The translations under genes and the position numbers were made by a program. This document shows positions 3,929-26,126 of a DNA stretch of 64,000 bases, one piece after another (within the stretch, counting starts at the first letter, position 1; each line of letters opens with the position of its first letter). Location of the stretch: the NCBI RefSeq assembly GCF_964194025.1, contig NC_134472.1:59582001-59646000 (forward strand), written 5' to 3'. The stretch comes from Convolutriloba macropyga. Its lineage: Eukaryota. The notes below the pieces were generated by a model that worked only from the letters and a program-made list of their open reading frames with translations, had not been told where the DNA came from and made no database searches.

Positions 3929-5352
3929 TGTCCTCTTCTGAATTTCTGCTAGGCTCAACAGTGAGGGAACTCTGTCGCCCAAAAGATCGATCAAATAAAA
4001 TAAACCAAAGGTTTTGAATTGGTGAAGCAAGCGTTACTTTGTTACTCTGCGATTTCCCCTCTTCCCTTCTTGTAAGCTGTTGCAAATTAGATTGCCTTAA
4101 AATAAGTTAAATCACAATGGGGCTCGTAATGTCAATTCTAGTTATATGGATAACAGAGGTAAGCGAATTACTTGCACATCAATGGAAAAGACCAATTCAA
4201 GACAATTTATAATAGTAATTAAAAAAAATATTACCAATATCCGTGGTTCAATTTCCCAAAATGAACTAAACCAAAAACCGCTCACAGTATCGCAACTGGT
4301 CTTGCGATTACAATTCTTTTAAAGTTTAGTCCCACTAAACCAACTACTTTTCTCGCTTGTTCGAAAGCAAACTTCTGAAGTTGAATGACAGAGCATAATT
4401 TGATATTGGTTTGTTTGCATAGCAAACAAAGCCCTCCTACAGAATGTAAGAGATTGAAAGTGTAATTTGCAATGTTTATTTAAGAGATTAAGGTTTGTTT
4501 GCTTAAGATAATAGCGTATTGGTTGAGTATAAATTGAAGTGACACAGAAATTTAGAGAGAGAGAAAGAGACTTCTGTGTCACTTCAATTTATACTCAACC
4601 AATACGCTCTAATCTTAAGCAAACAAACCTTAATCTCTTAAATAAACATTGCAAATTACACTTTCAATCTCTTACATTCTGTAGGAGGGCTTTGTTTGCT
4701 ATGCAAACAGACCAATATCAAATTATGCTCTGTCATTCAACTGCTAGCAACCATTGTTCAACTTTCTCCTTATCTTAAGTAAACAACCTTTGGACTCTTA
4801 TGTAAACAAATTCACTCCACTTTATCTGATATATGCACTTGACATGTCAATCAGTGCTTGCTTAGTAAACATTGAACGTTGCTCTGAAAAGTTCTTATAC
4901 CTCTAATTCCGCTATCAAATTAACTAGCTGCAATCAATCCCTGTCAAAAATCATGTAATAAATAAATAACTAAACTCAACCCTAAATCAAAGACCAATTG
5001 TAATTTCCATTTTTTAAACTATTTCATGCAATTCCCCAGTTAAAAACCGCCGAAAATTCTAATACTCCTAAAAGCACACAATTTGACCTTTAGGGGTCAT
5101 CCAAAGGTAACCCGTCCAAAATGAAGGGTCAAGTTGATAAAAACTAAATATTGTCACGGAAAGCTCTCTCATATTTGCACCTAGCCACAAAATTTCATGG
5201 CCTAACTCCCACTAGTACACGAGCAATGAGCGCACACACTTTTCATCTACCTCCCGGATGACCGCAAAATTTCCAAACTTAATATCTCGCGAAGTAGTGG
5301 TCCAAACGTCTTCGGGTAAAAATTTCTAGTAAATACAGGGTGCCACAAACTT
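3929..5352 (-). repeat. Inverted LTR fragment (3' part), related subfamily
   Basis: Reverse-complement similarity to 5' LTR ~8040-9127 (e.g. TTTAGTCCCACTAAACCAACT vs AGTTGGTTTAGTGGGACTAAA); diverged in its middle. Confidence 0.8.
4379..4742. repeat. Near-perfect fold-back inverted repeat, 171-bp arms, 22-nt loop
   Basis: 4379-4549 is the reverse complement of 4572-4742 with only a few mismatches; loop ATTTAGAGAGAGAGAAAGAGAC. Confidence 0.95.
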
Positions 5353-5730
5353 TAGTAAAGAGCGATTGTAGCACGCGTGCAAAATAAATGCGGATTACAA
5401 TAAGAGCAACGAATACGAACTTACTTGTATATAGGCTTGTTGGAAAGCTCGCAATTAGGACAATCTAACTAAGATAAAAACACCAAAGCTAAATTGAAAT
5501 AATTTAAGTACTCTCTTGAAAGCAAACACATGGTGCCCCAAGTTCTCGTTAAAACAAATATGCACAAAAGTAAGCAAAGTTACAAACCGGAATAAGGCAT
5601 AACGAATTGGTTGAGGTTGAAGAATGAAAGGCTGTCAGGATAGATTGATGAGACAAACAGGCGGCGGTGAATTAGTAAATAATTGAATAAAAGCACAAGT
5701 CAAGGTTATTAAAGAAAGTAGCTTAACTAA

Positions 5731-6059
5731 ATGGCCAGAACAAAGCAAACTAGAAAAATTGTTCGTAAATTGAGAGGAAAAACTCAATCAAGTTCATCAG
5801 GATCAGAGATTTCTGTGCCCGCATCACCTCCCTCGTCCTTATTTGAGCCCTCGCATGTAGAAGTTGGCACATCTGCACCCGCACTGAAAGCAAAAACAAG
5901 TAAAGAAAAGGCAAAACCGGCCCTTAAAAAAGAGCAAAATCCAAGATGGCCGCTACTGGCGGAATAAATACGGAGGATATCCGGAAAAGGGACCCAAAAC
6001 TGGCCTTGGCGCTGGAGAAAATGCTCGCTAGGGAGCAAGCCAAGACCCAGAAAAACTAA
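5731..6059 (+). CDS. LTR-encoded histone H3 N-tail mimic protein (78-aa ORF to 5967; ~109 aa if a 1-nt loss in an A-run is restored)
   Basis: MARTKQTRK vs H3 MARTKQTARK. Ser/Pro/Lys-rich linker. The -1 frame after AAAAAAG (~5926-5932) reads RAKSKMAATGGINTEDIRKRDPKLALALEKMLAREQAKTQKN*. No histone fold. Confidence 0.65.
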
Positions 6060-6098
6060 ATTCTTATTGTATATATCTTTGTTAAGTAAAATGAAAAT

Positions 6099-7046
6099 TT
6101 ATTGCCTGCTCGTTGATTTCAATTCGAATCGATATATTAGGAGATAGTGTTGCACACCCTCTACCACTTGAAATTTCAAGAATATCCCACCATCTTGCAC
6201 TCCTTTAGGTTTTCCAGCCAGTTTTAGGTAATAGGGTTGTTCCCCACCCTCAGGATCATAATACACATAAATGTTTAAACGACAATGGCGGGCGAATAAT
6301 CGTAAGTCTGTAGTGTTTACGTACTCAACATCCTCGATTCCTCTGGTCAGGGAGGTTTTGCCAGGACATTTAAATAAATGCTTGTTTGGTTCATTCCGTA
6401 AAGAAACAAAAAAATTTTGATTTTTCCAGCCTGAGTGCGATCTCCAGTTGTAATGGCGGACAGACAGGAGGCCACGCAATTAAATTTGGGGTGGGCAGCA
6501 TCTAAGGTAACGGGATCATACCGTGTAGTTTCGAGCTCGGAACAACTAAAAACCCCCAGATTATAACTTTAATTTAGTCAGAGTGAATTTGGTATAAAAG
6601 TGCTTACCTTTCAAATAGCTCGTAGCAATGACGCTACTCTTGTTCTAGGCCCAGCTCCCGGCAAACCCGATTTAGTTTTGCTTCGGATAAAAACTTCATA
6701 GGACCACGAGTACAGCAAAATAGAGTTTCACTGTCGCAATCGAGAGATTCCTTTACGAATTTTCGGCACCACATTCGTAGGTCGCGGACACTAAATGTTT
6801 GTCGCGCCATAGATTCCAGATTTTCTCAGGAGGGATGATCGTTTTTCCTGTACAATTCTGTAAGCTTAGTTCTTGCGTTACCCCAGTGAAGAACCGTGAG
6901 CTCTGAACCCATTCGCAATAAAACCCCTTTTGATAATAATTTTGGCATCGTTTACGGAGTTCTTTCCTGTAAACCCACGTAGAATTTCTCGGATAAAGAC
7001 CAGATTTAAGATAATGAAAGATTACAAAGTAGATTTGACTATCCAT
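6099..7046 (-). pseudogene. Antisense spliced LTR gene: integrase-type N-terminal (YP/H2C2-like) region + OTU-like cysteine protease
   Basis: Exon 1 7046-6608, GT-AG intron 6607-6546, exon 2 6545-6099. Splicing keeps the frame (FES|CSELET). Motifs: YLKSGLYP, NDH...(C/S)LDC, FNCVASCLSAITTGD, NTTDLRLFARHCRLNIYVY, IFLKF...QHYLLI. Stops and frameshifts present. Confidence 0.65.
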
Positions 7047-9128
7047 TTCAACTGAAATTGTATATCATTTAATACTGTATGCAGAGTAAGAGAGAATGCG
7101 TTATTTGAGTAGAGTTTGTTGACTTAAAGTAAATAAAAAGGCAATTTATCAGTTTTCCAAATACACTCGGGTGAAAAGTTGTCCGACCCCCCCCCCCCCG
7201 GGATGGGAAGCAGTTATTGGTTGATAACCAGTCAATGATGTGGAGGAACCACTAATAGTCCTCTATTGCGAGCATAATTCTCAGGCGAATCCGACCACCC
7301 ACCTCTGCCCCCCCCCCCGTTATTAACACGGGAAGTAGTGTAATTTGAAGGTTTTTAGGTATATTACTGTGAAATATGAAATGTTTGAGTAAAAAATAAT
7401 GGGATTAATCAGTCGTAGTGTCATGCACGTATGAATTAAGGTATTTGCATGATCTTGGGAAGGGTTTAGGATGTAAAATGGCGATTTTTATATAATGGTA
7501 ATTATCACAGGATTGTAGTTAGCACCTAAATTGAAAAAAGTACTTTTTCGAAAAGTTGAAGTCGGATTGACCTGAAAATTGGGGGATAGACTAATTTGGG
7601 TACGAGAAATCCGATTTTAATGTCGGATCTGACCCCACACCAACCTGCACGGAACTAGCGCATGCCCGTGCTGCGGAACGTAAAATTTGAACTGCTCGTG
7701 GAGTATTGGTAGTAGCCCTATGATTTTTGGAGGGTTAGTGTAACTTTTCAAGGGCTTTCGATTGGTGATATTTTCAATCCCAGATTTCGACCGGAATTCG
7801 GTGCTTCGAGACAACCCGAGTCCCGAAAACGGGAAATTGGCCTTTCTGGGCGGCCGAACGACTTTGAAATGGTATCAATATGATAATCTGAGACAGTTAG
7901 TGACAAAAAATAACCACCCCGGTCAGTTTTGACGAACTCGGATTTTTCGGGTTTCGGCACCCACGACTCGTTAAAAATTTTTAAATTGCAAATGACTCGC
8001 GACGGCTGATCCGTTGGTCATGAAACCTGGCAGGCAAGTTGGTGGCACCCTATAGTTACTATAAAAGCTTACCCACTACTTCGCAAGCTATTACGTTTGG
8101 AAATTTGGGGTCATCCGGGGAGGTCGATGAAAAGTGTGCGCGGTCATTGCTCGTGTTCTATTAGGATTTAGGTGATAAAAATTGGTGGGTAGGTGTAACT
8201 ATGGTAGGACTTTCCGTGCCAATAGTTATTTTTACCAAATTGACCCTTCATTTTTAACTATTGACCTCTAATTGACCTCTAGAGGTCAAAATTTTGGGGT
8301 TTTGGGACTTTTTGGTTTCTGACTAATTTTTGTATGGGGAATTGCACGGAATGCTGGGAAAAGCATACAAAGCCATTATTTTAGCGAGCATGAATTAGCG
8401 ATATATTTACACATGGAGACCAATAGTCTTTGAATAACAAAAGCAACAGAATTGACTTGGCGCCAAATTTGTGTAGGCAAATAAGAGCGATAAGGACCGC
8501 GGACTTTGACGCTAATCTGTTTGTTTAGTGGAGGAAACCCCTCCCTCGGATGTATCAATCTGTCAAAATGATTTACGGTGTTTACTTAAGTTCTAAAAGT
8601 GTATTTAATTAAGATAAGATAAAGTTAGCCAATTAGAAAAAGTTGTAATCAGCTTATCGTGTATATGTTGGAGAAAGAGAGAAAACACTTAGCTAGTGAG
8701 CAGTTGGTTTAGTGGGACTAAACATAAAACAGTCAGTAAAGCGGCAAGACCAGTTAGGAAACTCTGAGCAACTTGGTTAATTATATTGCGAGTGAATCAC
8801 GATAAAGTTTTGAACTTACCCAAAATTTTTTGCAGTTGAATTTGTCTCAAGTTATTAGTTGATTGAGAGTTGCATCTTTTTACTGTGGATTCTACATTTG
8901 TGCTGGTGTTCTCTATTCAATTTAACGTCTTTTGGGACAAAGCATTTTTGACAGCCTGCAAGAGTGAACGAGGGGGAAAAACTCAGAAAAGAGACAAGGT
9001 AGCGCTTGCTTCATCATTTTCTTTTAAACCTTCGGTGTTGGTTATAATTAAGTTTGATCGATCTTCTGGGCAACAAATCCTCCTCAATGTTAATCTAGTT
9101 ATCTAGTTAGAAATTCAGAACACGACAG

Positions 9129-9146
9129 TGGCGCTCCTGGGTGGGC
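9129..9146 (+). promoter_or_regulatory. Primer-binding site, probably tRNA-Asn
   Basis: TGGCGCTCCTGGGTGGGC; its reverse complement GCCCACCCAGGAGCG-CCA resembles metazoan tRNA-Asn 3' ends (from recall). Confidence 0.8.
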
Positions 9147-9210
9147 ATCGCTCCTTGTAAGTTTCTGTAAGTTTATTTTTTTTATCCACTAAGTGGTAAA
9201 GTTTTCCGAC

Positions 9211-10441
9211 ATGAGTGAAAACGGAGACGATCTACCTAACGATCCTCTCGCATTGGACAGAGGTGACAAAGACGCGGATGACGATGCTCCAGACAATGGC
9301 CGAGGGGTTTTTGGACCGGGCACGCTGAGGCCGGATCGATACCCTTCGAAAAAACACTCGACGTGGATTCAGTGGAAGAAGCACTTTCTGTGGCTAGCTG
9401 ACACCAACGGTTGGGACGATGTTACAGCAATTTGGGCCCTTCCAACTTGTTTAACATCTTGGGCGCTTGGCGAGTTCGCCGCCATGCCTGCTAGATTTAC
9501 GAGACAAGTGGGAAGGAATTTGCCTTCAACACTAGCGAGGGTTTTTGAGTACTTGGACCCAAGAATGTCGCCTTACAGAGATCAACGTACGGCCAGGGAG
9601 AGCTCAGTTCAAGGCACTCATACAAGGTGACAAAGAGGAAACGTGTAAGTTTTCGAGAAGTTTAAGGGCATTGGGTGAAATCGCACATACACACATGAAC
9701 GCTTTGTCCCGAGATGACATGAACAGAGAACAATTTATTGATGGTTTGTTCGACTCCGATATTTATGAAATGATTCTTCGCGAGGTCCCACAGACATTCG
9801 ATGAAGCTGTAAACAGAGCGCTGAGTCTTGAAGCCATTACGAAAGGTTCACGATTTCGACAGCGGAAAAGAATATCGGCAATAAGGACTATGGCAGAGGC
9901 AACTTCGTTTCCTCCGGTGGTAGCTCAACCTTTGCCCTCACAAGCATCAAGAGGTGTTCAAGGCACCCCATTTGCACAAATGCCTCTGACTAATGATGCA
10001 CTTGAGACAAAAATTGACAAACTTGTTGACAGTCAGGAAAAATTTATGTCAAATATATCTTCGATGATGAGTAAGTTCTTCTCGTCTGTCATACCGGGAC
10101 CACCAGCAGAGCAAGCTCTTGCACCTCAGAACACTGGAAAGCAATTGTTCAATCCGTATTCTCCAGATAGTCGATACGGACAGTGATTTGCGTCAGCTTC
10201 TCGACCGAAGGGACAATACAAAACTGGCCAACAACGACGACAGGGTGGTACAGGCTGTTTCCATTGTGGAAGTTCGGATCACTTCAAAAGAGAGTGTCCG
10301 CTACTTGCCAATAGTCCTTTAAACTGGAAAGGGCCGGGCCCACCGGGGAATACCAGAGGGAAGGGTTTATCCCGGCCAAATACAAAAAAAACCCAAACAG
10401 CGGTGCCACCACTAACGAAGGAACGCAGTCCAATCAGTTAA
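9211..10441 (+). pseudogene. gag: Gag (one frameshift near 9600, nonsense at 10184-10186)
   Basis: Capsid-like motifs (EQFIDGL, PQTFDEAVNRALSLE); zinc knuckle CFHCGSSDHFKREC at 10256-10297; frame ends at TAA 10441. Confidence 0.88.
10318..10377 (+). promoter_or_regulatory. -1 programmed ribosomal frameshift signal (gag to pro-pol)
   Basis: T_TTA_AAC at 10318-10324 is correctly phased in the gag frame. The -1 frame is open into the protease ORF. GGCCGGG (10332-10338) can pair with CCCGGCC (10371-10377). Confidence 0.8.
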
Positions 10442-13400
10442 GGATGTATCATCAGTTGGACGAGACCCTAGTTACGAAGGCATCCACAAGAGACCAAATG
10501 GGTGATTTGCCGGAGCAAGGAAAAGAACCATACAGCATTCTAGTTTCGGGCGAGTTAAATGACTCGAAGCTAGCCTTCCTTATCGATACGGGAGCAAACA
10601 CGAACATAATCAGTTACGATACCTTGTTTTCTTTGGACATTCCGGTTAAAATGGAAAAGTATACTGGTAGACTGGAGACAGCAGACGGTAAACGAGTTGA
10701 CGTTATCGGCCAAGCCAAATTGCATTTACGTTTGCGCGAAATCGACACTGATATTGATGCTTTAGTCATGCATGATCTCGACAACCACATGATTCTGGGT
10801 CTTGAGACTTTAAAGGTGCACCGTTGCATTATCGATTTGGATACTGATCAGCTTTGGACAGGTCAGAAAGAGGGATCAACAGTGCCAATACGAATTGAAG
10901 GACCAAAAAAGTTGGCAACTTTTATTGAGGCAGTTCCCCATGACCGTCAAATGACTGTGCATGCTACAGAAGTTTCTAATGGCTCAAAAATTGACCGAAA
11001 CCGATTTGATCGCATTGCTGAAACACATTTTGATGTTCATTTACAGAATGATCCAAAACCGACGTCTCAACTTGAAGACAACGTCCAAAAAATATTTGAA
11101 TTATCGGCACCTGGTGTGACAGGCAATGATTTGAAGGATTTGAGAGCCTTAGCGCAAGAGTTCCAAGATGTTTTTGCCTTGACTAACGACGAGTTAGGCT
11201 GCATCAATGTTGTGGAACACAGGATTGAGACTGGTGATAGCCCGCCAAAAAAAAATTCCTCCCAGAAGAGCAGGCCTACCTAAAGTAGAGATTATCAGGG
11301 GAGAAGTAAATGCAATGTTGGACCAGGGGATCATTCGGCAGTCCCAAAGTCCTTATAGTTTCCCAGTAGTTCTTGTAAAGAAAAAGGACGGAAATGTGCG
11401 GGTTTGTATTGACTACAGAAAATTGAACGACGTAACAATTAAGGATGCATTCCCAATTCCTAAGATCGACCAGTCGTTCGATAAACTGAAGGAAGCAAAA
11501 TTGTTTTCGTCACTGGACTTGGCAACTGGATATTGGCAGATTCCGTGGCTCCGGAGCATTGTCACAAAACGGCTTTCGTGACACCGGATGGAGGTCCTTA
11601 TGAATACGTTCGAATGCCGTTTGGATTGTCAAATGCACCTGGTACTTTCCAAAGATTGATGAATGAAGTTTTTAGAGACTACCTCTACAAATTTAATCTC
11701 ATCTTCCTAGACGACGTCCTGGCTTATAGTACAAATAAAGCTGATCAATTGGACATTTGCAAACTATTTTACAAACACTGCGAGCGTTGAACTTGAAGTT
11801 GAAGCGCAAGAAGTGTAAATTATTTCAACGAGAAGTTGTATATCTTAGTCATATTATTGGAAATGGTGGAGCAAGACCTGACCCTGATAAAGTTTCAACG
11901 GTAAAGCATTGGCCAGTACCAAAGACGCTGAAACAGATTCGGTCTTTCGTTGGCTTCTGCAATTACTATCGACGCTTTGTGAGAGATTTTGCACAGATTG
12001 CAAGGCCACTCACGGATCTCAAAAAGAAAGATGCTCGCTTCGAGTGGAATTCCGACTGCCAATTATCATTTGATAGACTTCGAGTAGAACTTGATACCGC
12101 GCCAGTGATGCAGTTTCCTCGTTTTGATTACCCCTTCATCATTGCTACAGATGCCAGCAAAGTAAGTTTAGGAGCAGTGATCTCTAATGTTGTCGATGGT
12201 GTGGAACGGCCAATTGTTTACTCAAGTAGGGTGCTCACAAAAACAGAAATGATGTACTCCACAACCAAACGCGAGGCACTTGCAGTGATACAGGCATTGA
12301 AATGGTATAAAAACTACATATGTGGACTACCGTTCATCATTCGAACCGATCATGCTAGCCTTCGATGGCTCTTTGGGCAAGACAATGACGATGATGCAAC
12401 AGGAATGATGTTCCGAATGTGTCAGTTCCTACAGGAGTATAATTTTCAAGTAGTCCATCGAGCTGGATCGAAACACGCAGACGGACTCACAAGACGCACA
12501 GAGGAGAATCCTGAATGGGTATCCGGAGAAAGAGAAGAGACCGGAAGTTGTCCCGAGGCTGTGGATATAGACACAGCAATTTCCAAGGCCACTGATCAGC
12601 TACGGCTTACAGTTCAGGGTCAGTATGACGAAACAGCGGATCTAGAAGATGACCAACTCCTAGAAAACGATGAAGAGCAAGTTTCAATAACTTGGAATGG
12701 TGCTGAATCGGACGTGAGGTCGTTGCAGGAACAAGATGAGGCGATCAGCCGCATTCTTTTTTGGGCAGCTGTAGATGAAAACAAAAACTGTCTAAACTTT
12801 GGAACAAACTTGATAACCAACGATGACGCTGCTCAATACGAGCGAGAGGTAATGGCACTATGGGGAAGATGGAATGAACTGTCAATTGAGAACGGAATAC
12901 TATATCATAAGTGGTTCAAGAACGAGAGTGTTTCCTCGGAGGAGCGAGTCCTACAATTGGTTGTTCCAGCAAGTGGCCATAAAGAGATATTAGAACAATT
13001 ACATGACTCTCCCGTTAGTGGAGGTCATTTTGCATTCAAAAATCTTTCAATCGGGTCAGACAAAGGTTCTGGTGGCCGTCATTGAGGTTGGATATAGAAA
13101 AACGGTTATTGTGGTGTCTTCCCTGCGCTGCAAGGACAACCACGGGCCGGAAACGTGTTGCCGGCCTCCAACTGTTCGAAGTTGCGATTCGATTTCATAA
13201 GGTAGCGGCCGATATTTTGGGACCAGTAACAATGGCCAAAGCTTCGAAGGCAAAGCATATTCTAGTGATAACTGATTGGTTTACAAAATTCGTTGTAAGC
13301 ACACCTCTCGTGGGTACAGAGTCAGAAGATGGCGCCCGAGCAATTGTTGAGAAGTGGGTCTTAAAGTTCGGAGTACCAGATGTTTTGCACACAGATCAAG

Positions 13401-14537
13401 GGAAAAACTTTGGTAATCAGTTAATCCTCGACATGTGCAGACTACTGAAGATTGACAAAACACGTACGTCTCCGTATCACCCTCAGGGAAACGGCCAAGT
13501 TGAAAGGCACAATAGAATTTTGGCGGATGTCATATCCAAGTTTTGCGCAGATAATCCTTGGACCTTGGACGAGATGTTACCCTACGTAGACTTCGTTTTC
13601 AACACAACCGTTCATAGGACAACAGAAGCCACGCCGTTTAGTCTAGTGTTTGGACAGGAGTGCCAGTATCCAATTGATGTTTTTTATCCAAAACCCCCTG
13701 ATGAAGAGCGCAGCCAAGGAGAATTTATCGAGTGGCTCGAGGCACAGTTTTGTGAAGCTCATGCAAACGCCAGGGAGCAATTAGGAGTAAACCAGCAGAG
13801 ACAGAAGGACCTTTACTTCAAAAAGGTTTATGGCGAACCTTACGAAATTGGTGCAAACGTTTGGCTTTACTCGAAGCAAAAGGCCAAATCAAAGAAGTTC
13901 CTTGTTCCCTACGAAGGCCCTTACATTATCCAGGAAAGAACTTCAGAAGTCAACTACATGATTTGCAAAGAAGGAAGACCGCGAAAAACGAGGATAGTTC
14001 ATTTCAATTTGCTAAAACCATATAATGAGGAGCGAACGGGTGATAGAAGTGGTAGGAACAAGCGACCTACACTTTTTCGTTCGCAGGATTTCTTCAATAG
14101 ATTTCCTGATGATCAAGTTGAAGAATATGATGACGATGGGGAGGTTATGAGGAATACCGAAAACACGCTCCATGAAAGGCAACAATGCAGACGTAATATT
14201 GCTGCGGCACAAGTCCGATTACGTGATGCGAGATTAAATAAGCCCTCCGTCTCGCTAGTTGAAGCCGAACAAATTTCTAGCTCCTGCAATTTGGCTGAGG
14301 TTGTAGACATGTTAGCTGATATAACCCAATGTCCAAGCTAGTGATCTAACAAAAGCCAACCAGAGCAACGAGGAAAGTCCAATATCTGATAGAAACGACA
14401 AAAACCTTGACGTGGAGGAACAACTTGTGTTCCAAGCTAATGAACCGTCTGAAATGGTAGAAGGCGAGACTCCTCTGGCGCGCAGACGGCCTCGGCGAGA
14501 TATTAAGCCCGTGATCCGACTCGGGATTGTCGAATAG
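10318..14537 (+). pseudogene. pol: Pro-Pol: aspartic protease, RT, RNase H, integrase (several frameshifts)
   Basis: LIDTGA; CIDYRKLN, MPFGLSNAP, FLDD; ATDAS, KREALAV, RTDH; HDSPVSGGH..CLPC, ADILGP, HTDQG, GQVERHNR, GPY; frameshifted basic tail RRPRRDIKPVIRLG ends at 14537. Confidence 0.95.
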
Positions 14538-17419
14538 ACGTTTTATTTTGATACTACTGATAGGTTTTATGTTTTTTCTGGTTACCCCTCCCTGTAAAAA
14601 TAGAATTAGATCGTAAAAAAATGTACTTTTAGTATATTGGGCAAAATTGTTGATCTCGATTAACGATTTAAGTTTTTTGTAGTATTTCGTAGTAAAATAA
14701 TATGGACATTTATTTAGATACAATCCTTCATAATGGGAGGGGTGGTTGTGTGGAGGGCCGTTGTGTTGCTCATTCCTGCGGCAATAGTGCGATCAGAGAT
14801 CGAAAGAAACACGGCTCGAGCGGTTTTTATCCCTGAAACGCCAGTGATAATTTCAAGTGGACTCGAAGCGACGTGGGTAACCGTTCCCATTCCCGGACTA
14901 CCGGCAATAAATCTGACTCACTTAGACTTGGCTTATCAGGAATTCCAGTTGAATTTGGCCATAAAGTGGAGAGGATATGATGGAACCATATGTGGTGATC
15001 AGGAAACACATGACCGATTGTTGAACAGTACATATGTGACAATCAAAGGAGTGGAATATGAAGTCCAGGAGACTGAAAAGGGTTGGAGGGACATTAAAGA
15101 CCGCATAGGGACGTTTGTTAATGGAACGACTAATCCCCATCATGGCCGCGAGTTAACTGCCTTCAAAGTTGCTTTGCACAATTTTGGCTACGTGCTGGAC
15201 GATGCATTGGGTTCTCTGGCTCAGGGACACATTCCTGCTACATTGATCCCACCGGAAGTTCTGTTGCAGCTCTTAGATGGTCGTCAACTGGATACCCAGA
15301 ACGAGTCAATTCCACGACATGATCTTATGACGTATTATGGGTTTGAACTTGTGGAATCGACAATAGTTACACACAATAGGTTGAACATTCTGCTCAATTT
15401 TCCGGTTCACCATACGAATGGTTTTCATCGTGTTTACCGCGCGGTACCTATTCCGCAGCCAATAGCTAATGGGTCGATTTAGCTAAATTTGATAAAAATT
15501 ATTTGTTGGATTCGGAATATAATAATAATTTTGCGGAAGTTACCGAAGGAAAGATGAACTCGCACTGTATGATGACGATGGGGAGGTCATGAGGAATACC
15601 GAAAACACGCTCCATGAAAGGCAACAACGCAGACGTAATATTGCTGCGGCACAAGTCCGATTACCTGATGCGAGATTAAATAAGCCCTCCGTCCCGCTAG
15701 GTGAAGCCGAACAAAATTCTAGCTCCTACAATGTGGCTGAGATTGTAGACATGTTAGCTGATATAACCCAATATCCAAGCTAGTGATCTAACAAAAGCCA
15801 ACCAGAGCAACGAGGAAAGTCCAATATCTGATAGAAACGACAAAAAGCTTGACGTGGAGGAACAACTTGTGATCCAAGCTAATGAACCGTCTGAAATGGT
15901 AGAAGGCGAGACTCCTCTGGCGCGCAGACGGCCTCGGCGAGATATTAAGCCCGAGATCCGACTCGTGATTGTCAAATAGACGTTTTATTTTGATACTACT
16001 GATAGTTTTTAGGTTTTTTCTGGTTACCCCTCCCTGTAAAAATAGAATTAGATTGTAAAAAAATTTACTTTTAGTATATTGGGCAAAATTATTGATCTCG
16101 ATTAACGAATTAGGTTTTTTGTAGTATTTCATAGTAAAATAATATTGGCATTTATTTAGATACAATACTTCATAATGGGAGGGGTGGTTGGGTGGAGGGC
16201 CGTTGCGTTGCTCATTCTTGCGGCCATAGTTTCAAGTGGACTCGAAGCGACGTGGGTAAGCGTTCCCATTCCCGGACTACCGGCAGTAAATCTGACTCAC
16301 TTAGATTTGACTTATCAGGAATTCCAGTTGAATTTGGCCATAAAGTGGAGAGGATATGATGGAACCATATGTGGTGATCAGGAAACACATGACCGATTGT
16401 TGAACAGTACATATGTGATAATCAAAGGAGTGGAATATGAAGTCCAGGAGACTGAAAAGGTTTGGAGGGACATTAAAGACCGCATAGGGACGTTTGTTAA
16501 TGGAACGACTAATCCCCATCATGGCCGCGAACGTCGCGGTGCTGGAGCAATTTTTGCCGGGATTGCGGCCGTCTCAGTAGTTTCCTCAATTGTACTTGCT
16601 CCTGTACTTAAGGAAGGTTTCTGCCACTATATGTCTTTCTTTGGTTTCTGTGGAAGCAGCAAGGACATTGACCGTTTGGGCAAAGAATCCGAATTCCTGG
16701 ACGGAGCTATTCAAACAGTTATGGAGCTATTCAAACAGGAGAAAAGATTCACTTGCTAGGCCACCCTCTTAACAAAACCCAGGGTCAATTACGGCTGATA
16801 TCCAAGGATGGAAACAATAATCTTCACACTATTAGAGTTGCGATTTTGCAACTAGCGAAAGCGGTATCTTATGGAGCTTACGGTGACCAAAAACTGGGAC
16901 AGTGCGAAAAAAATCGTGAGTGGGCATCAACTCTTAAAAAGAGCATTGCCTTCACAACAGGAGTTCAAAATTTCAGCGATCATATGACTGCAATAAGATT
17001 GGAGTTAACTGCCTACAAAGTTGCTTTGCACAATTTTGGCTACGTGCTGGACAATGCATTGGGTTCTCTGGCTCAGGGACACATTCCTGCTACATTGATC
17101 CCACCGGAAGTTCTGTTGCAGGTCTCAGATGGTCGTCAACTGGACACCCAGAACGAGTCAATTCCACGACATGATCTTATGACGTATTATGGGTTTGAAC
17201 TTGTGGAATCGACAATAGTTACAAACAATAGGTTGAACATTCCGCTCAATTTTCCGGTTCACCACTCGAATGGTTTTCATCGTGTTTACCGTGCGATACC
17301 TATTCCGCAGCCAATAGCTAATGGGTCGATTTAGCTAAATTTGGTAAAAATTATTTGTTGGATTCGGAATATAATAATAAGTTTGCGGAAGTTACCGAAG
17401 GAAAGATGAACTCGCACTG
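14126..17419 (+). repeat. Internal tandem duplication of pol 3' end + env 5' part (14126-15567 and 15568-17419)
   Basis: TATGATGACGATGGGGAGG starts both units and both end ...GAACTCGCACTG; junction at 15567/15568 with TA microhomology. Confidence 0.92.
14733..15482 (+). pseudogene. env: Env copy 1, internally deleted (no furin site or fusion peptide) and truncated
   Basis: Signal peptide, then HHGR joins ELTAFKVALH, skipping the region at ~16531-17003 of copy 2. Confidence 0.85.
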
Positions 17420-18309
17420 TAGGGGGAGTTCCAGCTTGCTGCTCTGCATGAAATTTTTTCCAATGGCAAGAAGTTCCTCGGCAACATGTCTTTCGAGCCT
17501 TTTTTTCAACTTACCAACCTCTGCTTTGAGACTTTGTCATGAATTGAAATTCTACCCGACGAAGCAGCTGCCGAATACCTGGATGACTCAACTTACCTAA
17601 ACACGTCCAGCAACGATGATTTCAAATTCATTAACTATACTAGAGTGAAAGACCAATCACAAAGCGAACAGATACCCGGATGCAGGAGTTGTCTGATTAG
17701 ACCCAGTTGCCATGGAAGGGTTGAAAACCCTACGGTAACGATCGCTCTATACCCAGAATCCAGAACATGTCAGCATAATTCAAGCAAAGTTGTTATTGTT
17801 GAACACCATCCGCTACTGCAGTCATTGTTTGAAGTTTTGACAATGGTGGAAAACGAGAAAATAGGAGTCGAAATTCCGGAAAGTTTTGTAAACGCTGCCC
17901 ATGAGGAGATGAGTCTTTTAGACTAAACCTGGTAGACTTACCAGAGGGCACAGTTGACCAAGGGGAATTGGAATTGATTGCCAGGCTTTTTGCGGAACAC
18001 ATTATTGATAAACATACGCCGTTCCACTGGAAGGCGTATCACAGTTCACTCCTGCGCATTCTTCTTGGTCTGGTAGCTATAACAATTCTGCTCGCTATAC
18101 TCTGGCTGATTTGGAAAAAACTGCAGGAACTCAAATTGTGTCCTTGTCAGGAGAGACTGCACGACGAATCGTTTTTCGAACATGTGAGACGAACTGTGGT
18201 TCCCCCTGTTCGCTACCACCGTAGACACAAAAGAGGTAGCATCGATCGCATCAGCAATGATGAGGTGGTAATCGGTTCGCCGTCCCATAGCTCAAACAGG
18301 ATAATTTAG
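16175..18309 (+). pseudogene. env: Env copy 2, class I fusion glycoprotein (frameshifted)
   Basis: Signal peptide; furin site RERR (16526-16537) followed by hydrophobic GAGAIFAGIAAVSVVSSIVL; LAQGHIPATLIPPEVL; Cys-rich region; TM ILLGLVAITILLAILWLIW then KK; N-glycosylation sequons. Confidence 0.88.
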
Positions 18310-19106: not shown

Positions 19107-19454
19107 CTAAGACGCGAGCTTAGGTTTTTCTAAACAAATAAAAACTTGGTGTAAGATCGAACCGTCCTCGTACAACTCGGCCTCGTTCCTTAGAGCCAAT
19201 TTGAAACGTTTAAAGGGGGCTGAGGAATTCCCAAGCGATAATTTGGTATCCTGGCCTTCGAGTACCACTGAAACGTCAAGCAGATAGAACTCCTTTAGAT
19301 TAATCGGTACAGGGTTTTTGGAGACAACTTGTATCAGGATACATTCAATGCCTATAACTGGTAGAAAGTCAAAGGGTTTGCACGTAACCCCATGGGGAAG
19401 GATAAAAGCCAGGGTTCTGTTGTTGAAGGCGTCCCTGAAACAGATAAGGAGCAA
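19107..19454 (-). CDS. Putative antisense accessory ORF, possibly a spliced terminal exon
   Basis: 115 open codons of globular-looking composition. A candidate intron 19517-19435 (GTAAGA...TTTCAG) joins in frame to ...PNASIGVGK-W-DAFNN. Confidence 0.35.
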   Translation of the reverse strand: MLLICFRDAFNNRTLAFILPHGVTCKPFDFLPVIGIECILIQVVSKNPVPINLKEFYLLDVSVVLEGQDTKLSLGNSSAPFKRFKLALRNEAELYEDGSILHQVFICLEKPKLAS

Positions 19455-19843
19455 TGAGTCATGGGAGAAAAGTTACAAGGTTTGCAGTATTACAAGGATT
19501 ACTAAAAAAATTCTTACATTTTCCAACTCCGATAGATGCATTAGGCTGGGTAATTCTGAACTGAAAGATGAGCGAGCTGGTTTATGGTTAAGCAACAATT
19601 TGGTAATTAGATTGGCATGATGGTTATCTTGAGCAAATATTAAATACGGCTTAATGGACAGATGGCGTGATTAATGAGATGTTTAAACAATGGGCAAGAG
19701 TGAGTGAAGTTCTCTTATCACAAAATAAACATTCTTATTTACCTTGAGTAAACAAACTGGGAAACAAAAGAATTTGTAAAAGAGATAAGATAAGAGCATC
19801 CGCACTAGCTGGAGAGAATTCAATAAGACAAAAACAGCAAACC

Positions 19844-20290
19844 ATGAGCAGCCCACAACCGTGGAGTGACAGCGAAGGTGAAGTAAACACTTCGAGCCGA
19901 ACAGAAGTAAGAGAACGAAATGAGTCGGCTAATGATCAGGATGAAGGGGATCAACAGAACCGAAGAACCACAAATGCAAGGCATACTGAAACCATGGGGG
20001 AAGCATCCGCTGTGGTGAGGGGATGGGTAACTAGATGAGGCCAAAGGCAAATTCCCCATTGGACCAGTAGAACCATTGGACAACGAGTGGCGTACTGCCT
20101 GGGAAGAAGAGGCAACACTCGCGGTGTGAACAAGTTCAAAAACGCGCACATTGAATACAAGCGCAAGATCGAGCGAGCGTTGGAGTGATGCAAAGCGCGC
20201 GAAAGATCGCTGCTGGAGGAATTGTCTCTCTTGGAGCGAAGGGAAATACGAGTCCAAGAATTGGGATTGTCGTCAAGCGACGAAGACTGA
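19844..20290 (+). pseudogene. Putative sense accessory ORF (~148 aa with two in-frame TGA)
   Basis: Acidic N-terminus, Arg-rich middle, helical Leu/Glu-rich C-terminus (LLEELSLLERREIR), ending SSSDED*; locally GC-rich. Confidence 0.45.
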
Positions 20291-20395
20291 GTACTACTTT
20301 TGAAAAAATTTTATTATCAAAAAATTTATTTCTAGTTTTTCTGTATTGATAATTTTTTTTAACTTGCAGGTTTTGCCATCATTCGGGAGTATGAT

Positions 20396-20413
20396 GAGAG
20401 TAGAGGGGGAGAG
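20396..20413 (+). promoter_or_regulatory. Polypurine tract
   Basis: GAGAGTAGAGGGGGAGAG abutting the TG of the 3' LTR. Confidence 0.9.
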
Positions 20414-20777
20414 TGAAGCACGCATGCAAAATAAATGCGGATTAAAATGAGAGCAACAAATACGAACTTACTTGTATATAGGCTTGTTGGAAAGCTCGCA
20501 ATTAGGACAATCTAACTAAGATAAAAACACCAAAGCTAAATTGAAATAATTTAAGTACTCTCTTGAAAGCAAACACATGGTGCCCTAAGTTCTCATTAAA
20601 ACAAATATGCACAAAAGTAAGCAAAGTTACAAACCGGAATAAGGCATAACGAATTGGTTGAGGTTGAAGAATGAAAGGCTGTCAGGATAGATTGATGAGA
20701 CAAACAGGCGGCGGTGAATTAGTAAATAACTGAATAAAAGCACAAGTCAAGGTTATTAAAGAAAGTAGCTTAACTAA

Positions 20778-21106
20778 ATGGCCAGAACAAAGCAAACTAG
20801 AAAAATTGTTCGTAAATTGAGAGGAAAAACTCAATCAAGTTCGTCAGGATCAGAGATTTCTGTGCCCGCATCACCTCCCTCGTCCTTATTTGAGCCCTCG
20901 CATGTAGAAGTTGGCACATCTGCACCCGCACTGAAAGGAAAAACAAGTAAAGAAAAGGCAAAACCGGCCCGTAAAAAAGAGCAAAATCCAAGATGGCCGC
21001 TACTGGCGGAATAAATACGGAGGATATCCGGAAAAGGGACCCAAAACTGGCCTTGGCGCTGGAGAAAATGCTCGCTAGGGAGCAAGCCAAGACCCAGAAA
21101 AACTAA
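20778..21106 (+). CDS. Second copy of the H3-tail mimic ORF (3' LTR)
   Basis: 78-aa ORF 20778-21014 differs from the first copy by 2 aa; same frameshifted extension to 21106. Confidence 0.65.
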
Positions 21107-21145
21107 ATTCTTATTGTATATATCTTTGTTAAGTAAAATGAAAAT

Positions 21146-22097
21146 TTATTGCCTGCTCGTTGATTTCAATTCTAATCGATATATTAGGAGATAGTGTTGC
21201 ACACCCTCTACCACTTGAAATTTCAAGAATATCCCACCATCTTGCACTCCTTTAGGTTTTCCAGCCAGTTTTAGGTAATAGGGTTGTTCCCCACCCTCAG
21301 GATCATAATACACATAAATGTTTAAACGACAATGGCGGGCGAATAATCGTAAGTCTGTAGTGTTTACGTACTCAACATCCTCGATTCCTCTGGTCAGGGA
21401 GGTTTTGCCAGGACATTTAAATAAATGCTTGTTTGGTCCATTCCGTAAAGAAACAAAAAAATTTTGATTTTTCCAGCCTGAGTGCGATCTCCAGTTGTAA
21501 TGGCGGACAGACAGGAGGCCACGCAATTAAATTTGGGGTGGGCAGCATCTAAGGTAACGGGATCATACCGTGTAGTTTCGAGCTCGGAACAACTAAAAAC
21601 CCCCAGATTATAACTTTAATTTAGTCAGAGTGAATTTGGTATAAAAGTGCTTACCTTTCAAATAGCTCGTAGCAATGACGCTACTCTTGTTCTAGGCCCA
21701 GCTCCCGGCAAACCCGATTTAGTTTTGCTTCGGATAAAAACTTCATAGGACCACGAGTACAGCAAAATAGAGTTTCACTGTCGCAATCGAGACAGTCTCT
21801 TACGATTTTTTGACACTACCTTTGTAGGTCGCGGACACTAAATGTTTGTCGCGCCATATATTCCAGATTTTCTCTGGAGGTATTATCGTTTTCCCTTTGC
21901 AATTCTGTAAACTTAGTTCTTGCGTTACCCCGGTGAAGAACCGTGAGCTCTGAACCCACCCGCAATAAAAACCCTTTTGAAAGATAATAATTATAGCATT
22001 GTTTACGGAGTTCTCTCCTGTAAACCCACGTAGAATTTCTCGGATAAAGACCAGATTTAAGATAATGAAAGATTTCAAAGTAGATTTGACTATCCAT
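21146..22097 (-). pseudogene. Second copy of the antisense H2C2-like + OTU-like gene (3' LTR)
   Basis: Exon 1 22097-21655, intron 21654-21593, exon 2 21592-21146. About 296 aa after reading through 2 TAG and restoring one 1-nt frameshift; retains DCLDC. Confidence 0.65.
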
Positions 22098-24195
22098 TTC
22101 AACTGAAATTGTATATGACTTAATACTGTATGCAAAGTAAGACAGAATGAGTTAGTTAAGTAGAGTTTTGTTGACTTAAAGTAAATAAAAAGACAATTTA
22201 TCAGTTTTCCAAATAAGCTCGGGTAAAAAGTTGTCCGACCCCCCCCCCCCCCCGGATGGGAAGCAGTTATTGGTTGATAACCAGTCAATCATGGGGAGGA
22301 ACCGCTAATGGTCCTCTATTACGAGTATAATTTTCAGGCGAATCCGATCACCCAGTTATTAACACGGGAAGTAGTGTAATTTGAAGGTTTTTATGTATAT
22401 TGCTGTGAAATATGAATTTTTGAGTAAAAAATAATGGGATTAATCAGTCGTAATGTCATGCACGTATGAATTAAGGTAGTTGCATGATCTTGGGAAGGGT
22501 TTAGGATGTAAAATGGTGATTTTTGAGTATAATGGTAATTATCACAGAAATGTAGTGAGCACCTAAATTGAAATAGTATTTTTTCGAAAAGTTGAAGTCG
22601 AATTGACCTGAAAATTGGGTGATAGACTAATTTGGGTACGAGGAATCCGATTTTAATGTCAGATCTGACCCCACACCAACCTGCACGAAACTAGCGCACG
22701 CCCATGCTGCGGAACGTAAAATTTGAATTGCTCGTGGACTATTGGTAGTAGCCCTATGATTTTTGGAGGGTTAGTGTAACTTTTCAAGGGCTTTCGATTG
22801 GTGATATTTTCAATCCCAGACTCCGACCGGATGTCGGTGCTTCGGGACGACCGGAGTCCCGAAAACTGGAAATTGGCCTTTCTGGGCGGCCGAATGACTT
22901 TGAAATGGTATTAATATGATAACCTGAGACAGTTATTGACAAAAATAACCACCCCGGTCAGTTTCGACGAACTCGGTTTTTTCGGATTTCGGCACCCACG
23001 ACTCGTTAAAAATTTTTTGCATACGACTCGCGACGGCTGATCCCTTGGTCATGCAATTTGGCTGGCAATTTGCTGGCAAACTATAATTACTATAAAACCT
23101 TACCCGGAGACACTAATTCCCAAGCTATTAAGTTTGGAAATTTGGGGTCATCCAGGAGGTCGATGAAAAGTGTGCGCGGTCATTGCTCGTGTTCTATTGG
23201 GATTTAGGCGATAAAAATTGGTGGGTTGGTGTAACTATGCTAGGACTTTCCGCGCCACTAGTTATTTTTACCAAATTGACCCTTCATTTTTGACTATTGA
23301 CCTCTAATTAACCTCTAGAGGTCAAATTTTTGGGTATTTGGGAAATTTTGTTTTCTGACTAATTTTTGTATGAGGAATTCCACGGAATACTGGGAAAAGC
23401 ATACCAATTCATTATTTTAGCTTTGGCGAGCATGAATTAGCGATATATTTAAACATGGAGACCAATAGTCTTTGAATAACAAAAAAGACAAAATTGACTT
23501 GGCGCCAAATTTGTGTGCGCAAATAAGGGCGATAGGGACCGTGGACTTTGACGTTAATCTGTTTGTTTAGTGGAGGGAACCCCTCCTGCGGATGTGTCAA
23601 TCAGTCAAAATGACTTACGGTGTTTACTTAAGTTCTAAAAGTGTATTTAATTAAGATAAGATAAAGTTAGCCAAATAGAAAAAGTTGTAATCAGCTTATC
23701 GTGTATAAGTTGGAGAGAGAGAGAGAGAAAATACTGAGCTAGTGAGCAGTTGGTTTAGTGGGACTAAACATAAAACAGTCAGTAAAGCTGCAAGACCAGT
23801 TAGGAAACTGTGAGCAACTTGGTTAATTATACTGCGAGTGAATCACGATAAAGTTGTGAACTCATCCAAAATTTTTTGCAGTTGAATTTGTCTCGAGTTA
23901 TTAGTTGATTGAGAGTTGCATCTTTTTACTGTGGATTCTACATTTGTGCTGGTGTTCAATTTAACGTCTTTTGGGACAAAGCATTATTAACAGCCTCTAA
24001 GAGTGGACGAGGGGAAAAACTCAGAAAAGAGACAAGGTAGCGCTTGCTTCATCATTTTCTTTTAAACCTCCGGTGTTGGTTATAATTAAGTTTGATCGAT
24101 CTTCTGGGCGACAATTCCCCCTCATTGTTAGCCTAGTTAGAAATTCAGAAGACGACTGTAGCACGCATAAAGACTGTCGCTCTTTACTAAATAAT

Positions 24196-26126
24196 AACGA
24201 TATCCGTGGTTCACTTCCCAAATGAACTAAATCAAAAACCGCTCACAGTGTCCCAACTGGTCTTGCAATTACAAACTTCCAGAGTTCAATCTCACTCTCA
24301 ATCTCTTCCCTGCTTTTCACGCTATCATTTGAATTTTAGTCCCACTAAAACAAATGCATTTTCTCACTTGTGCGATTCCAAACTTCTGAGGTTCTCCCAG
24401 AATCTCCAAAAACTGCCTCTATCAAAATTTCTCTGTGTTAGTTTAATTTATACTCAACCAATACGCTCTTATCTTAAGCAAACAAACCTAAATCTCTTAA
24501 ATAAACATTGCAATTTACACTTTAATTCTCTTACATTCTGTAGGAGGGCTTTGTTTGCTATGCAAACAGACCAATATCAAATTATGCTCTGTCATTCAAC
24601 TGCTAGCAACCATTGTTCAACTTTCTCCTTATCTTAAGTAAACGACCTTTGGACTCTTATGTAAACAAATCCACTCCACTTTATCTCATATATGCACTTG
24701 ACATGTCAATCAGTGCTTGCTTAGTAAACATTGAACGTTGCTCTGAAAAGTTCTTATACCTCTAATTCCGCTATCAAATTAACTAGCTGCATTCAATCCC
24801 TGTCAAAAATCATGTAATAAATAAATAACTAAACTCAACCCTAACTCAAAGACCAATTGTAATTTCCATTTTTTGAACTATTTCATGCAATTCCCCAGTT
24901 AAAAACCGCCGAAAATTCTAATACTCCTAAAAGCACACAATTTGACCTTTAGGGGTCATCCGAAGGTAACCCGTCCAAAATGAAGGGTCAAGTTGATAAA
25001 AACTAAATATTGTCACGGAAAGTTCTCTCATATTTGCACCTAGCCACAAAATTTCATTGCCTAACTTCCACTAGTACACGAGCAATGATCGCACACACTT
25101 TTCATCTACCTCCCGGATGACCCCAAATTTCCAAACTTAATAGCTTGCAAAGTAGTGTTCAAAACGTCTCCGGGCAAGGTTTTATAGTAATTATAGTTTG
25201 CCAGCAAATTGCCAGCCAAATTGCATGACCAAGGGATCAGCCGTCGCGAGTCGTTTGCAATTTAAAAATTTTTAACGAGTCGTGGGTGCCGAAATCAGAA
25301 AAATCCGAGTTCGTCAAAATTGACCGGGATGGGTGTTTTTTGTCACTAACTGTCTCAGGTTATCATAATAATGCCACTTCAAAATTGTTCGGCCGCTCAA
25401 AAAGGCCAATTTTTGGCACTCGGGTCCTCCCAAATCACCAACTTCTGGTCGGAATCTGGGATTAAAGTTATCACCAATCGAAAGCCCTTGTAAAGTTAAA
25501 CTAACCCTCCAAAAATCATAGGGCTACTACCAATACTCCACGAGCAATTCAAATTTTACGTTCCGCAGCACGGGCGTGTGCTAGTTCCTGTAGGCTGGTT
25601 TGGGGTCAGATCTGACCTCAAAATCGGATTCCTCGTACCCAAATTAGTCTATCCCCCAAATTTCAGGTCAATCCGACTTGTACTTTTTGAGAATATACTA
25701 TTTCAATATAGGTGCTTACTACCTCCCTGTGATAATTACTAATATACTCAAAAATTACCATTTTACATCCTAAATCCTTCCCAAGATCATGCAAAAACCT
25801 TAATTCATACGTGCATGCCATTACGACTGATTAATCCCAATATTTTTTACTCAAACAGTCATATTTGAGAGTAAAATACCTAAAAACCATCAAATCACAC
25901 TACTTCCGGTGTTAATAGCTCGGGGGTGGGTGGTCGGATTGGCTTGAAAACTATAACCACAATAGAGGACCATTAGGGGTTCCTCCCCATCATTGACTGG
26001 TTATCAACCAATAACTGCTTCCCATCCCGGGGGGGTCGGACAACTTTTCACCCGAGTGTATTTGGAAAACTGATAAATTGCCTTTTTATTTACTTTAAGT
26101 CAACAAAATTCTACTTAACTAACTCA
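24196..26126 (-). repeat. Second inverted LTR fragment
   Basis: ~24196-25140 repeats ~4236-5280 directly; ~24930-26126 is the reverse complement of 3' LTR ~22149-23340. Confidence 0.85.

Follow-up and report, generated by a model that had tools for sequence, protein, structure and literature searches.

Starts that resemble the N-terminus of histone H3 on other proteins (H3TMs), H3-like genes borne by transposons, OTU domains in Ginger1 and Helitron elements, and the VANC proteins of plants are already known. H3TMs such as VRK1, BCL11B and PCLAF/PAF15 combine an iM-small-R-x-K start with a non-histone protein, some 21,000 human proteins including 48 with an M-small-R-x-K start, and influenza NS1 is a parasite protein with an H3 1–4-like motif, ARSK (accessible part of PMC8166343). 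Pyrenophora hAT transposons have multiplied an H3-related coding sequence, H3L (accessible part of PMC3538342). OTU domains occur in Ginger1 and Helitrons, and Ginger1 transposases have a gypsy-integrase-like N-terminus with an H2C2 site, a C-terminal OTU domain and an intron (accessible part of PMC2836005). VANCs of VANDAL transposons are accessory genes that diversify fast and have a proposed counter-silencing role, according to the available text of PMC5735166 and PMC13547354. Each of these systems has something in common with the locus reported here: H3TMs, NS1 and H3L with its first gene (gene 1), Ginger1 with its second (gene 2, the partner gene) and VANC with the two together. Accessory ORFs in the retroviral U3, the upstream part of the LTR in which gene 1 also lies, are represented by MMTV sag and HIV nef.

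Here, we describe a Ty3/gypsy element whose LTRs carry a two-gene cassette. In our main reading, to which we assign a probability of about 0.45, the cassette counters host chromatin silencing and gene 1 acts as a decoy of the H3 tip. Functional H3 mimicry of some kind by gene 1 is mildly favoured, and that gene 1 is a real, selected accessory gene, broken in the copy analysed, is very probable from the sequence comparisons below. Only tentatively do we propose the wider picture of an animal LTR-retroelement lineage with an LTR-borne counter-silencing cassette, made of an H3 mimic and a transposase-derived deubiquitinase in old interchangeable versions, in which sister lineages mimic either the K4 tip or the K14 region.

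The window, by which we mean the whole 64-kb stretch of DNA analysed, comes from a 1.18-Gb host genome and contains an element with the LTRs, primer-binding site, polypurine tract and protease–RT–RNase H–integrase order of Ty3/gypsy elements (Table 1). The env-like frame is 804–806 aa long in natural copies and matches Baculo_F weakly, at an E of 2e-4 that falls short of the curated cut-off. Gene 1 starts 365 nt into the LTR, its copy in the 3′ LTR is also 78 aa long, and both cassette genes are broken in both LTRs of the window. Rfam gave 0 matches in 5300–9300, and no tRNA was found in the window.

Table 1. Features of the element and its LTR cassette, in window coordinates.
Feature	Position	Strand	Remarks
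5′ LTR (TG...CA, about 3.76 kb), env-bearing Ty3/gypsy element	5367..9127	+	93.6% identical to 20414–24156
Hypervariable LTR cassette (approximate ends)	5660..7250	.	types A, B, C align at 66–76%, in patches only
H3-tip gene (gene 1) as found here	5731..5967	+	78-aa frame; broken within 5920–5945 relative to naturally open copies
H3-tip gene span where a type A copy is naturally open (108 aa)	5731..6059	+	MARTK start, S/P-rich motif, Lys-rich middle, C-terminal helix
M-A-R-T-K-Q-T	5731..5751	+	matches host H3 1–6; all residues but the Q are invariant in five LTR types
SPPSSLFEP, second conserved block	5824..5850	+	P-x-x-SLFEP invariant in five LTR types
Partner exon 2: predicted OTU-fold cysteine protease domain	6099..6545	-	frameshifted here; tail to tail with H3-tip gene
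Inferred 62-nt GT-AG intron, partner gene	6546..6607	-	splice-like sites; family F lacks this stretch
Partner exon 1: integrase N-terminal-like domain, H2C2 zinc site	6608..7046	-	broken in this copy
Primer-binding-site-like sequence	9129..9146	+	common to types B, C and family F
gag + pol (protease, RT, RNase H, integrase with H2C2 and C-terminal domain)	9193..14341	+	frameshifted here
env-like gene	14718..18309	+	fragmented, partly duplicated in this copy
Polypurine tract	20402..20413	+	–
3′ LTR with second cassette copy	20414..24156	+	contains H3-tip ORF 20778–21014

Several further features surround these. Integrase-end and env segments are internally duplicated at 14126–17421, and an antisense ORF of 82–121 aa downstream of env (19107–19472, minus strand) is found again in each of types A, B and C. 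Between env and the 3′ LTR, a 148-aa ORF (MSSP..., acidic start, Arg-rich end; 19847–20300, plus strand) is broken in the window, has natural copies at L111, L107 and L135 and is present in types B and C and in a deletion subfamily; the same region of family F holds different ORFs of 185, 102 and, antisense, 136 aa. The LTR part 7097–8352 is 84% identical, inverted, to a right-flank repeat at 24880–26126; the two flanks have a 777-nt repeat in common (4573–5349 and 24432–25208) as well as long inverted repeats, and beyond the 3′ LTR a short LTR-start repeat and an inverted left-flank copy stand in place of a target-site duplication. Farther downstream lie 30–32-nt tandem repeats based on TCTGATCA (42831–43949) and two long low-complexity frames on the plus strand (47823–48998 and 51079–52107), probably host-gene exons, with no Pfam match. 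Elsewhere in the genome, elements occur in tandem runs with common LTRs, at a spacing of about 11.9 kb in family F and 13.7 kb in type C (G000:C2:17259245–17307690; C3838:29601–57373).

The ATG at 5731 opens the sequence MARTKQTRK, in which M-A1-R2-T3-K4-Q5-T6 are identical to host H3 (taken from locus L104); a first-pass annotation of this DNA had noted the match to H3. The same annotation saw no histone fold in the gene, in line with Pfam (0 families) and with an AlphaFold model of the gene 1 protein that has helices at 5–15 and 80–106, is otherwise mostly coil and reaches a pTM of 0.25. Chance alone would give 3e-5 occurrences of MARTKQT per window and 0.5 per genome, and one isolated genomic match (L103) has a stop right after the T; a single copy therefore proves little, and it is conservation that carries weight. 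For the annotation, an ATG absent from most copies, or a motif no better conserved than flanking non-coding LTR, would have spoken against mimicry. Neither is the case: of 21 close copies, 19 have the ATG and 16 read MARTKQT, and five LTR types conserve the motif as protein sequence. Six loci of a tandem array of decayed cassette copies (L022–L027, G000:C5:73.21–73.22 Mb) have no ATG, and three further loci are too decayed to read. In all types, the MARTK ATG is the first in its frame after an upstream stop, and MARTK in types A–E fits the sequence definition of an H3TM start (iM-Z-R-x-K, with Z small). On the other side of the balance, several ATGs precede it in the LTR, with no clear splice acceptor before the gene 1 ATG, and type C has no AATAAA after the gene 1 stop.

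Downstream, the picture given by the annotation has to be changed. The segment KSKMAATGG...LAREQAKTQK lies in a different frame from the 78-aa ORF and ends at 6059, and it had been joined to the start by restoring one A in a run of A. The longer gene stands, with a natural frame of 107–113 aa in 9 of the 21 close copies and one of 145 aa in another of these (among L001–L021). The supposed cause of the break falls: the run is 6 long in 13 of 16 script-readable copies, 5 in two and 1 in one, and never 7, and it is also 6 in most naturally open copies, so that the frame break is not a lost A. Nor did the echo of H3 KSAP...ALREIRRYQK survive comparison with composition-keeping shuffles of five ORFs, run against H3 segments including 1–10, 10–45, 25–56 and 45–135. 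H3 10–45, 25–56 and the fold region gave p 0.06–0.98, and H3 1–10 was the only segment above the shuffles, with p 0.0005 in each of types A, B and C. With no fold, no likeness to H3 45–135 and no tail homology at the K9, K14 or K27 contexts, gene 1 is not an H3 variant. As for the second conserved block, its S-P-P-x-S core presumably resembles a GSK3/Fbw7 phosphodegron.

A protein search of the genome with gene 1, in which 150 of 168 candidates were scored, returned 148 matches, many of them 38–48% identical and with open frames; one of 40 distant matches examined was unrelated (L100). Besides type A, these comprise LTR types B (MARTKNTKK) and C (MARTKNTRR/S) and the single copies D and E (MARTKPTRK), the gene 1 proteins of the five types being about 40–45% identical. 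In the three types sampled (A, B and C), gag, pol, env and the two outer LTR parts are about 85–93% alike; LTR nucleotides ~300–1880 align only in patches of 66–76%. Four of seven LTR pairs are 96.6–99.1% identical, the other three being partial, interrupted or unpaired. Synonymous divergence is likewise uneven, with an env pS of 0.10 against a cassette pS of 0.68–0.91, and since the cassette is saturated at synonymous sites, we interpret the types as alternative cassettes of old standing on a backbone that they have in common and that was active recently. Such divergence may be read as in an arms race.

Across this divergence, the start of gene 1 is held constant. Fourteen of 108 positions are invariant in the five types (M1, A2, R3, T4, K5, T7, P-x-x-SLFEP, S22 and M90), six of them within the first seven residues, and the chance that five of the first six non-Met positions would be invariant is 7e-5 for five types and 4e-3 for three. 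The invariant N-terminal residues are H3 A1, R2, T3, K4 and T6, and the sole variable one (Q, N or P) corresponds to H3 Q5. Between types A, B and C, codons 1–5 have 0 non-synonymous and 2–3 synonymous differences (25 pairs each; open copies numbered 9 A, 14 B and 11 C, five of each were used between types, and broken copies were left out), and all four Ala codons are found across types A–E. This restriction of change to synonymous sites at an invariant start points to protein-level selection on the H3-matching residues. The pattern MARTKx(T)(R/K) occurs at 81 genome places, compared with 0 for a reversed control; of three unfamiliar matches examined, one arose by chance and the other two belong to the family. 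Deviating starts occur in single copies: MAGTK (twice), MARAK, MARSK, MVRTK and MARRK, a type C-like copy, L129, beginning MARRKN.

For the rest of the gene, the true frame is stop-free and the +1 and +2 frames have 4–10 stops. Weighing against our reading, omega within types is 0.45–0.90. An excess of pS over pN across the whole ORF is weak evidence, because wrong frames give it too (pS 0.39–0.74 vs pN 0.34–0.54) and protein-guided alignment inflates pS/pN. Within type A, too, frameshifts are no rarer in the ORF (2.05/kb) than in non-coding LTR (1.83–1.86/kb), although such post-insertion decay at the non-coding rate is expected if selection acts only on replicating copies.

A sister family, F, resembles the window family in its core (64% identity in RT, 59% in the RNase H region, 67% in integrase and 47% in gag) and has a 3.4-kb LTR, with a pair 99.5% identical. 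Its gene-1 slot holds a 117-aa basic ORF that starts MDGKIVK, without MARTK, and is not detectably related to types A–C (p 0.16–0.76). The conserved first 26 residues of this ORF contain GKAPIK and GKTPRA, both kept in older copies. Two non-overlapping matches to H3 GKAPRK have p 0.003–0.005, with p 0.64–0.94 for a reversed-H3 control and only 0.03–0.07 for a single match; as the test was designed after the motifs had been noticed, this K14-like motif pair is suggestive only as a likeness to H3. The genome also encodes H3 variants with Thr after K9, Met after K27 and changed residues 28–36 (L102 and L105; G000:C5:67543276 and C16:5549809). KKTLAAK of family F was considered as a copy of a host H3 variant and dropped, since it was not the best-scoring match.

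In another branch, a type A subfamily, the whole of gene 1 is deleted (5710–6118), and the resulting joint, 5709–6119, is the deepest joint in both public runs. This subfamily is very young by its LTR pair, which has 99.85% identity across 2742 nt, and it retains an intact OTU exon with its Cys and His. As it spreads without gene 1, the element has no need of the gene in cis; gene 1 may be supplied in trans or be of benefit only under some conditions.

Six-frame comparison revealed the partner gene as a second conserved cassette gene, antisense and tail to tail with gene 1, and both reading frames and the convergent layout are seen in the five LTR types and in family F. In family F, the partner gene is a single 297-aa frame, which defines the 62-nt GT-AG intron of types A–C by its uninterrupted course; two public runs, with contigs of unrecorded kind, had no joint at the predicted intron ends. 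Such an intron would survive reverse transcription because the gene is antisense. Exon 1 matches Pfam Integrase_H2C2 in a natural copy (E 6.6e-5). A model of the natural 297-aa protein (pLDDT 73, pTM 0.53, the OTU half being of low confidence in parts) has H2C2 at 64–109 and OTU at 154–294. Model residues 2–110 match the integrase N-termini of foamy virus, Ty3 and MLV (Z 7.0–8.6), and the OTU half matches OTUD3 (Z 10.6, rmsd 3.5, 126 aligned) and OTUD1 (10.5), the nine best rows all being OTU. Foldseek agrees on the folds at weak E (OTU best 4.5e-3). Pfam gave no OTU match for the partner protein, a sequence search of the PDB nothing under E 0.3, and the ESM Atlas no usable match for the whole protein, one Atlas cluster at 0.90 having OTU on 19% of its members.

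Exon 2 is thus a predicted OTU-fold protease. Its candidate Cys is kept in 18/20 type A, 34/35 type B–E and 8/8 family F loci covered, and its candidate His in 19/19, 38/39 and 8/8, respectively. The two residues lie at the expected ends of the OTU domain, their candidate catalytic assignment being by motif and not by superposition, and no Asp or Asn follows the His. Between types A–C, the OTU exon has a pN of 0.20–0.22, with pS saturated. At L133/L165 (G000:C13:16567420), a 166-aa homologue of the OTU exon has Ser where the candidate Cys would be and Lys where the candidate His would be. It stands without a neighbouring partner ORF and is possibly an inactive OTU. Since Ginger1 transposases join a similar integrase-like N-terminus to OTU, a Ginger1-like gene minus its DDE core is the likely source of the partner gene. 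A complex prediction with gene 1 and the two partner exons as separate chains, in which alignments were not used, gave a score of 0.00 and speaks neither for nor against a contact.

The host genome contains SUV39-like (chromo, pre-SET, SET) and RBBP4-like genes, together with a gene combining MBD and pre-SET, which we take to be SETDB1-type architecture. In Drosophila, silencing by Piwi involves Lsd1, Mi-2/Rpd3 and Egg/SetDB1, the last of which needs ubiquitination for activity (accessible part of PMC8490990). These two sets of components together suggest a model in which competition for readers of the H3 tip is coupled to deubiquitination by the OTU protein. The gene 1 product would be a small, largely disordered, basic nuclear protein, from which removal of Met would expose a free A-R-T-K-x-T start as in H3. 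It would then compete with the unmodified H3 tip for its readers and erasers, such as LSD1, the PHD fingers of Mi-2/CHD and RBBP4-type subunits. Gene 2, expressed from the opposite strand and spliced, would yield an integrase-N-terminal-domain/OTU protease that may deubiquitinate either a silencing factor or chromatin. Expression of both genes would thereby produce the postulated anti-silencing effect.

Gene 1 could be real without being a mimic, its start forming a basic amphipathic helix or a nuclear or nucleolar targeting signal that resembles H3 by chance. M-A would then reflect a good start context, followed by R, K and T, and the protein would do another job, for example in RNA export or particle assembly. 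The predicted helix at residues 5–15, the 25–28 K+R residues of the protein, the end of the H3 likeness at residue 7–9 and the different start of family F all agree with this. Composition alone predicts MARTK.T 17 times per genome, and the 48 human proteins with a relaxed start imply that a partial H3-tip match is not rare among nuclear proteins. Yet the invariant residues are exactly those of H3, a separate Lys-rich block sits mid-protein, and family F independently has an H3-like motif pair; moreover, such signals, to our knowledge, need neither two invariant threonines nor a fixed N-terminal position. We consider this explanation unlikely, though a serious one. A mimic might, on the other hand, recruit: methylated at K4, it would draw WDR5/COMPASS, PAF1 and TFIID to the LTR as a transactivator, the role in which accessory proteins of complex retroviruses work. 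The N-terminal conservation data are the same for recruiter and decoy, the S/P-rich and acidic C-terminal parts would suit a recruiter, and methylated H3 N-terminal mimics bind K4me3 readers, influenza NS1 binding PAF1 (accessible part of PMC8166343). But the gene 1 protein is without a DNA-binding domain and the deletion subfamily spreads without gene 1, although supply in trans fits too, and we rate recruitment as distinctly unlikely.

The first-pass annotation had also considered a captured and remodelled H3 or CenH3 tail, so that the start would be the relic of a drifted capture from a host gene. Transposons do carry H3-like genes (accessible part of PMC3538342), and the first five codons of type C are identical to those of the host H3 cluster, an identity that is uninformative as synonymous sites are saturated. 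Past residue 9, shuffles are not beaten and nothing is H3-like; against the 112 readable residues of the host CenH3-like tail, whose first exon was not found, p is 0.57–0.85; and a neutral relic would not retain only the H3-matching residues. A neutral relic is therefore largely refuted and drifted capture very improbable, whereas an origin by H3 capture with later selection as a mimic is possible. Constraint might instead act on the DNA, through the start context or through AAATGGC around the ATG, which we take to be a YY1-like site, and not on the protein. In every type, the ATG lies within AAATGGC or a near match to it, and the MAATGG codons hold a second AAGATGGC; however, the Ala, Arg, Thr and Lys codons differ synonymously at their third positions and the frame is open for 108–133 codons in each main type. 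DNA-level constraint is contradicted for codons 2–7, which leaves this explanation barely plausible. Just as implausible is a decoy for the UHRF1 PHD finger, with the OTU protein blocking UHRF1–DNMT1 maintenance methylation in the manner of PAF15/DPPA3, even though PCLAF/PAF15 begins VRTK and DPPA3 is described as binding the UHRF1 PHD (accessible part of PMC8166343 for the former). The genome search found no SRA domain, exon-split searches being able to miss genes, and no DNMT1 RFD, for which the control also matched nowhere. Methylase matches were either DNMT2-like by inspection or within a copia-like polyprotein (3 genes, from 5/18 matches), and CpG is barely depleted (o/e 0.82–0.91; CpG transitions 0.030 vs 0.022), all of which makes a UHRF1–DNMT1 target unlikely. 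L147 (G000:C6:8213000–8216000) and similar loci encode such copia-like polyproteins with a cytosine-methylase-like domain.

No homologue clearly from outside this element group was found for either gene in the following searches. For gene 1, 7 proteins and 18 representatives were retrieved, and 18/18 examined look like copies or fragments of the same LTR types; 27 pattern matches in viral contigs gave none confirmed. For the partner, 282 longer candidates contained no outside homologue, 18 proteins 61–98% identical are consistent with the same family, 90 pattern matches in metagenome contigs gave none confirmed, and phage records gave none. The literature titles and beginnings of abstracts searched, a scope outside which most subscription papers, supplements and Repbase fall, mention no LTR-encoded H3-tip mimic or LTR-borne OTU gene, nor do the accessible parts of PMC13269885, PMC6338049, PMC11963269 and PMC2774666.

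If the counter-silencing reading is true, a retrotransposon-encoded histone mimic would be newly described within the literature searched. Little is understood of how animal retrotransposons defend themselves against piRNA/heterochromatin silencing, and it is plant VANCs that have been well studied as anti-silencing proteins. For direct tests, the cassette supplies two small and soluble candidates, namely a short peptide and an OTU domain of 150 aa, and nature provides the controls: the three main alleles, family F with its different H3-like motif and the young subfamily without the mimic. Binding partners would reveal which silencing factors of the host the element is under selection to target, and the LTR appears here as a carrier of swappable genes, one with an antisense intron.

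Compared with the described systems, the cassette differs in each case in the carrier, the domain content or the arrangement. H3TMs, in the accessible account, are host genes, whereas gene 1 is LTR-encoded, exact at H3 A1, R2, T3, K4 and T6, and a predicted mimic; the NS1 motif is C-terminal, with no free H3-like N-terminus, whereas that of gene 1 is N-terminal and belongs to an endogenous element (PMC8166343). H3L retains the histone fold, of which gene 1 has only the tip of the tail (accessible part of PMC3538342). Unlike Ginger1, as far as it is covered by the available part of PMC2836005, the 297-aa partner protein has no room for a DDE core or GPY/F, and its gene lies antisense within an LTR. 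VANCs belong to plant DNA transposons; they bind DNA at specific sequences, and DNA methylation is lost (available text of PMC5735166 and PMC13547354). By comparison, the cassette belongs to an animal LTR element in a host in which no DNA-methylation system was found, and its counter-silencing role is predicted. Unlike MMTV sag and HIV nef, it consists of two convergent genes, one of them antisense and apparently spliced, in interchangeable cassettes.
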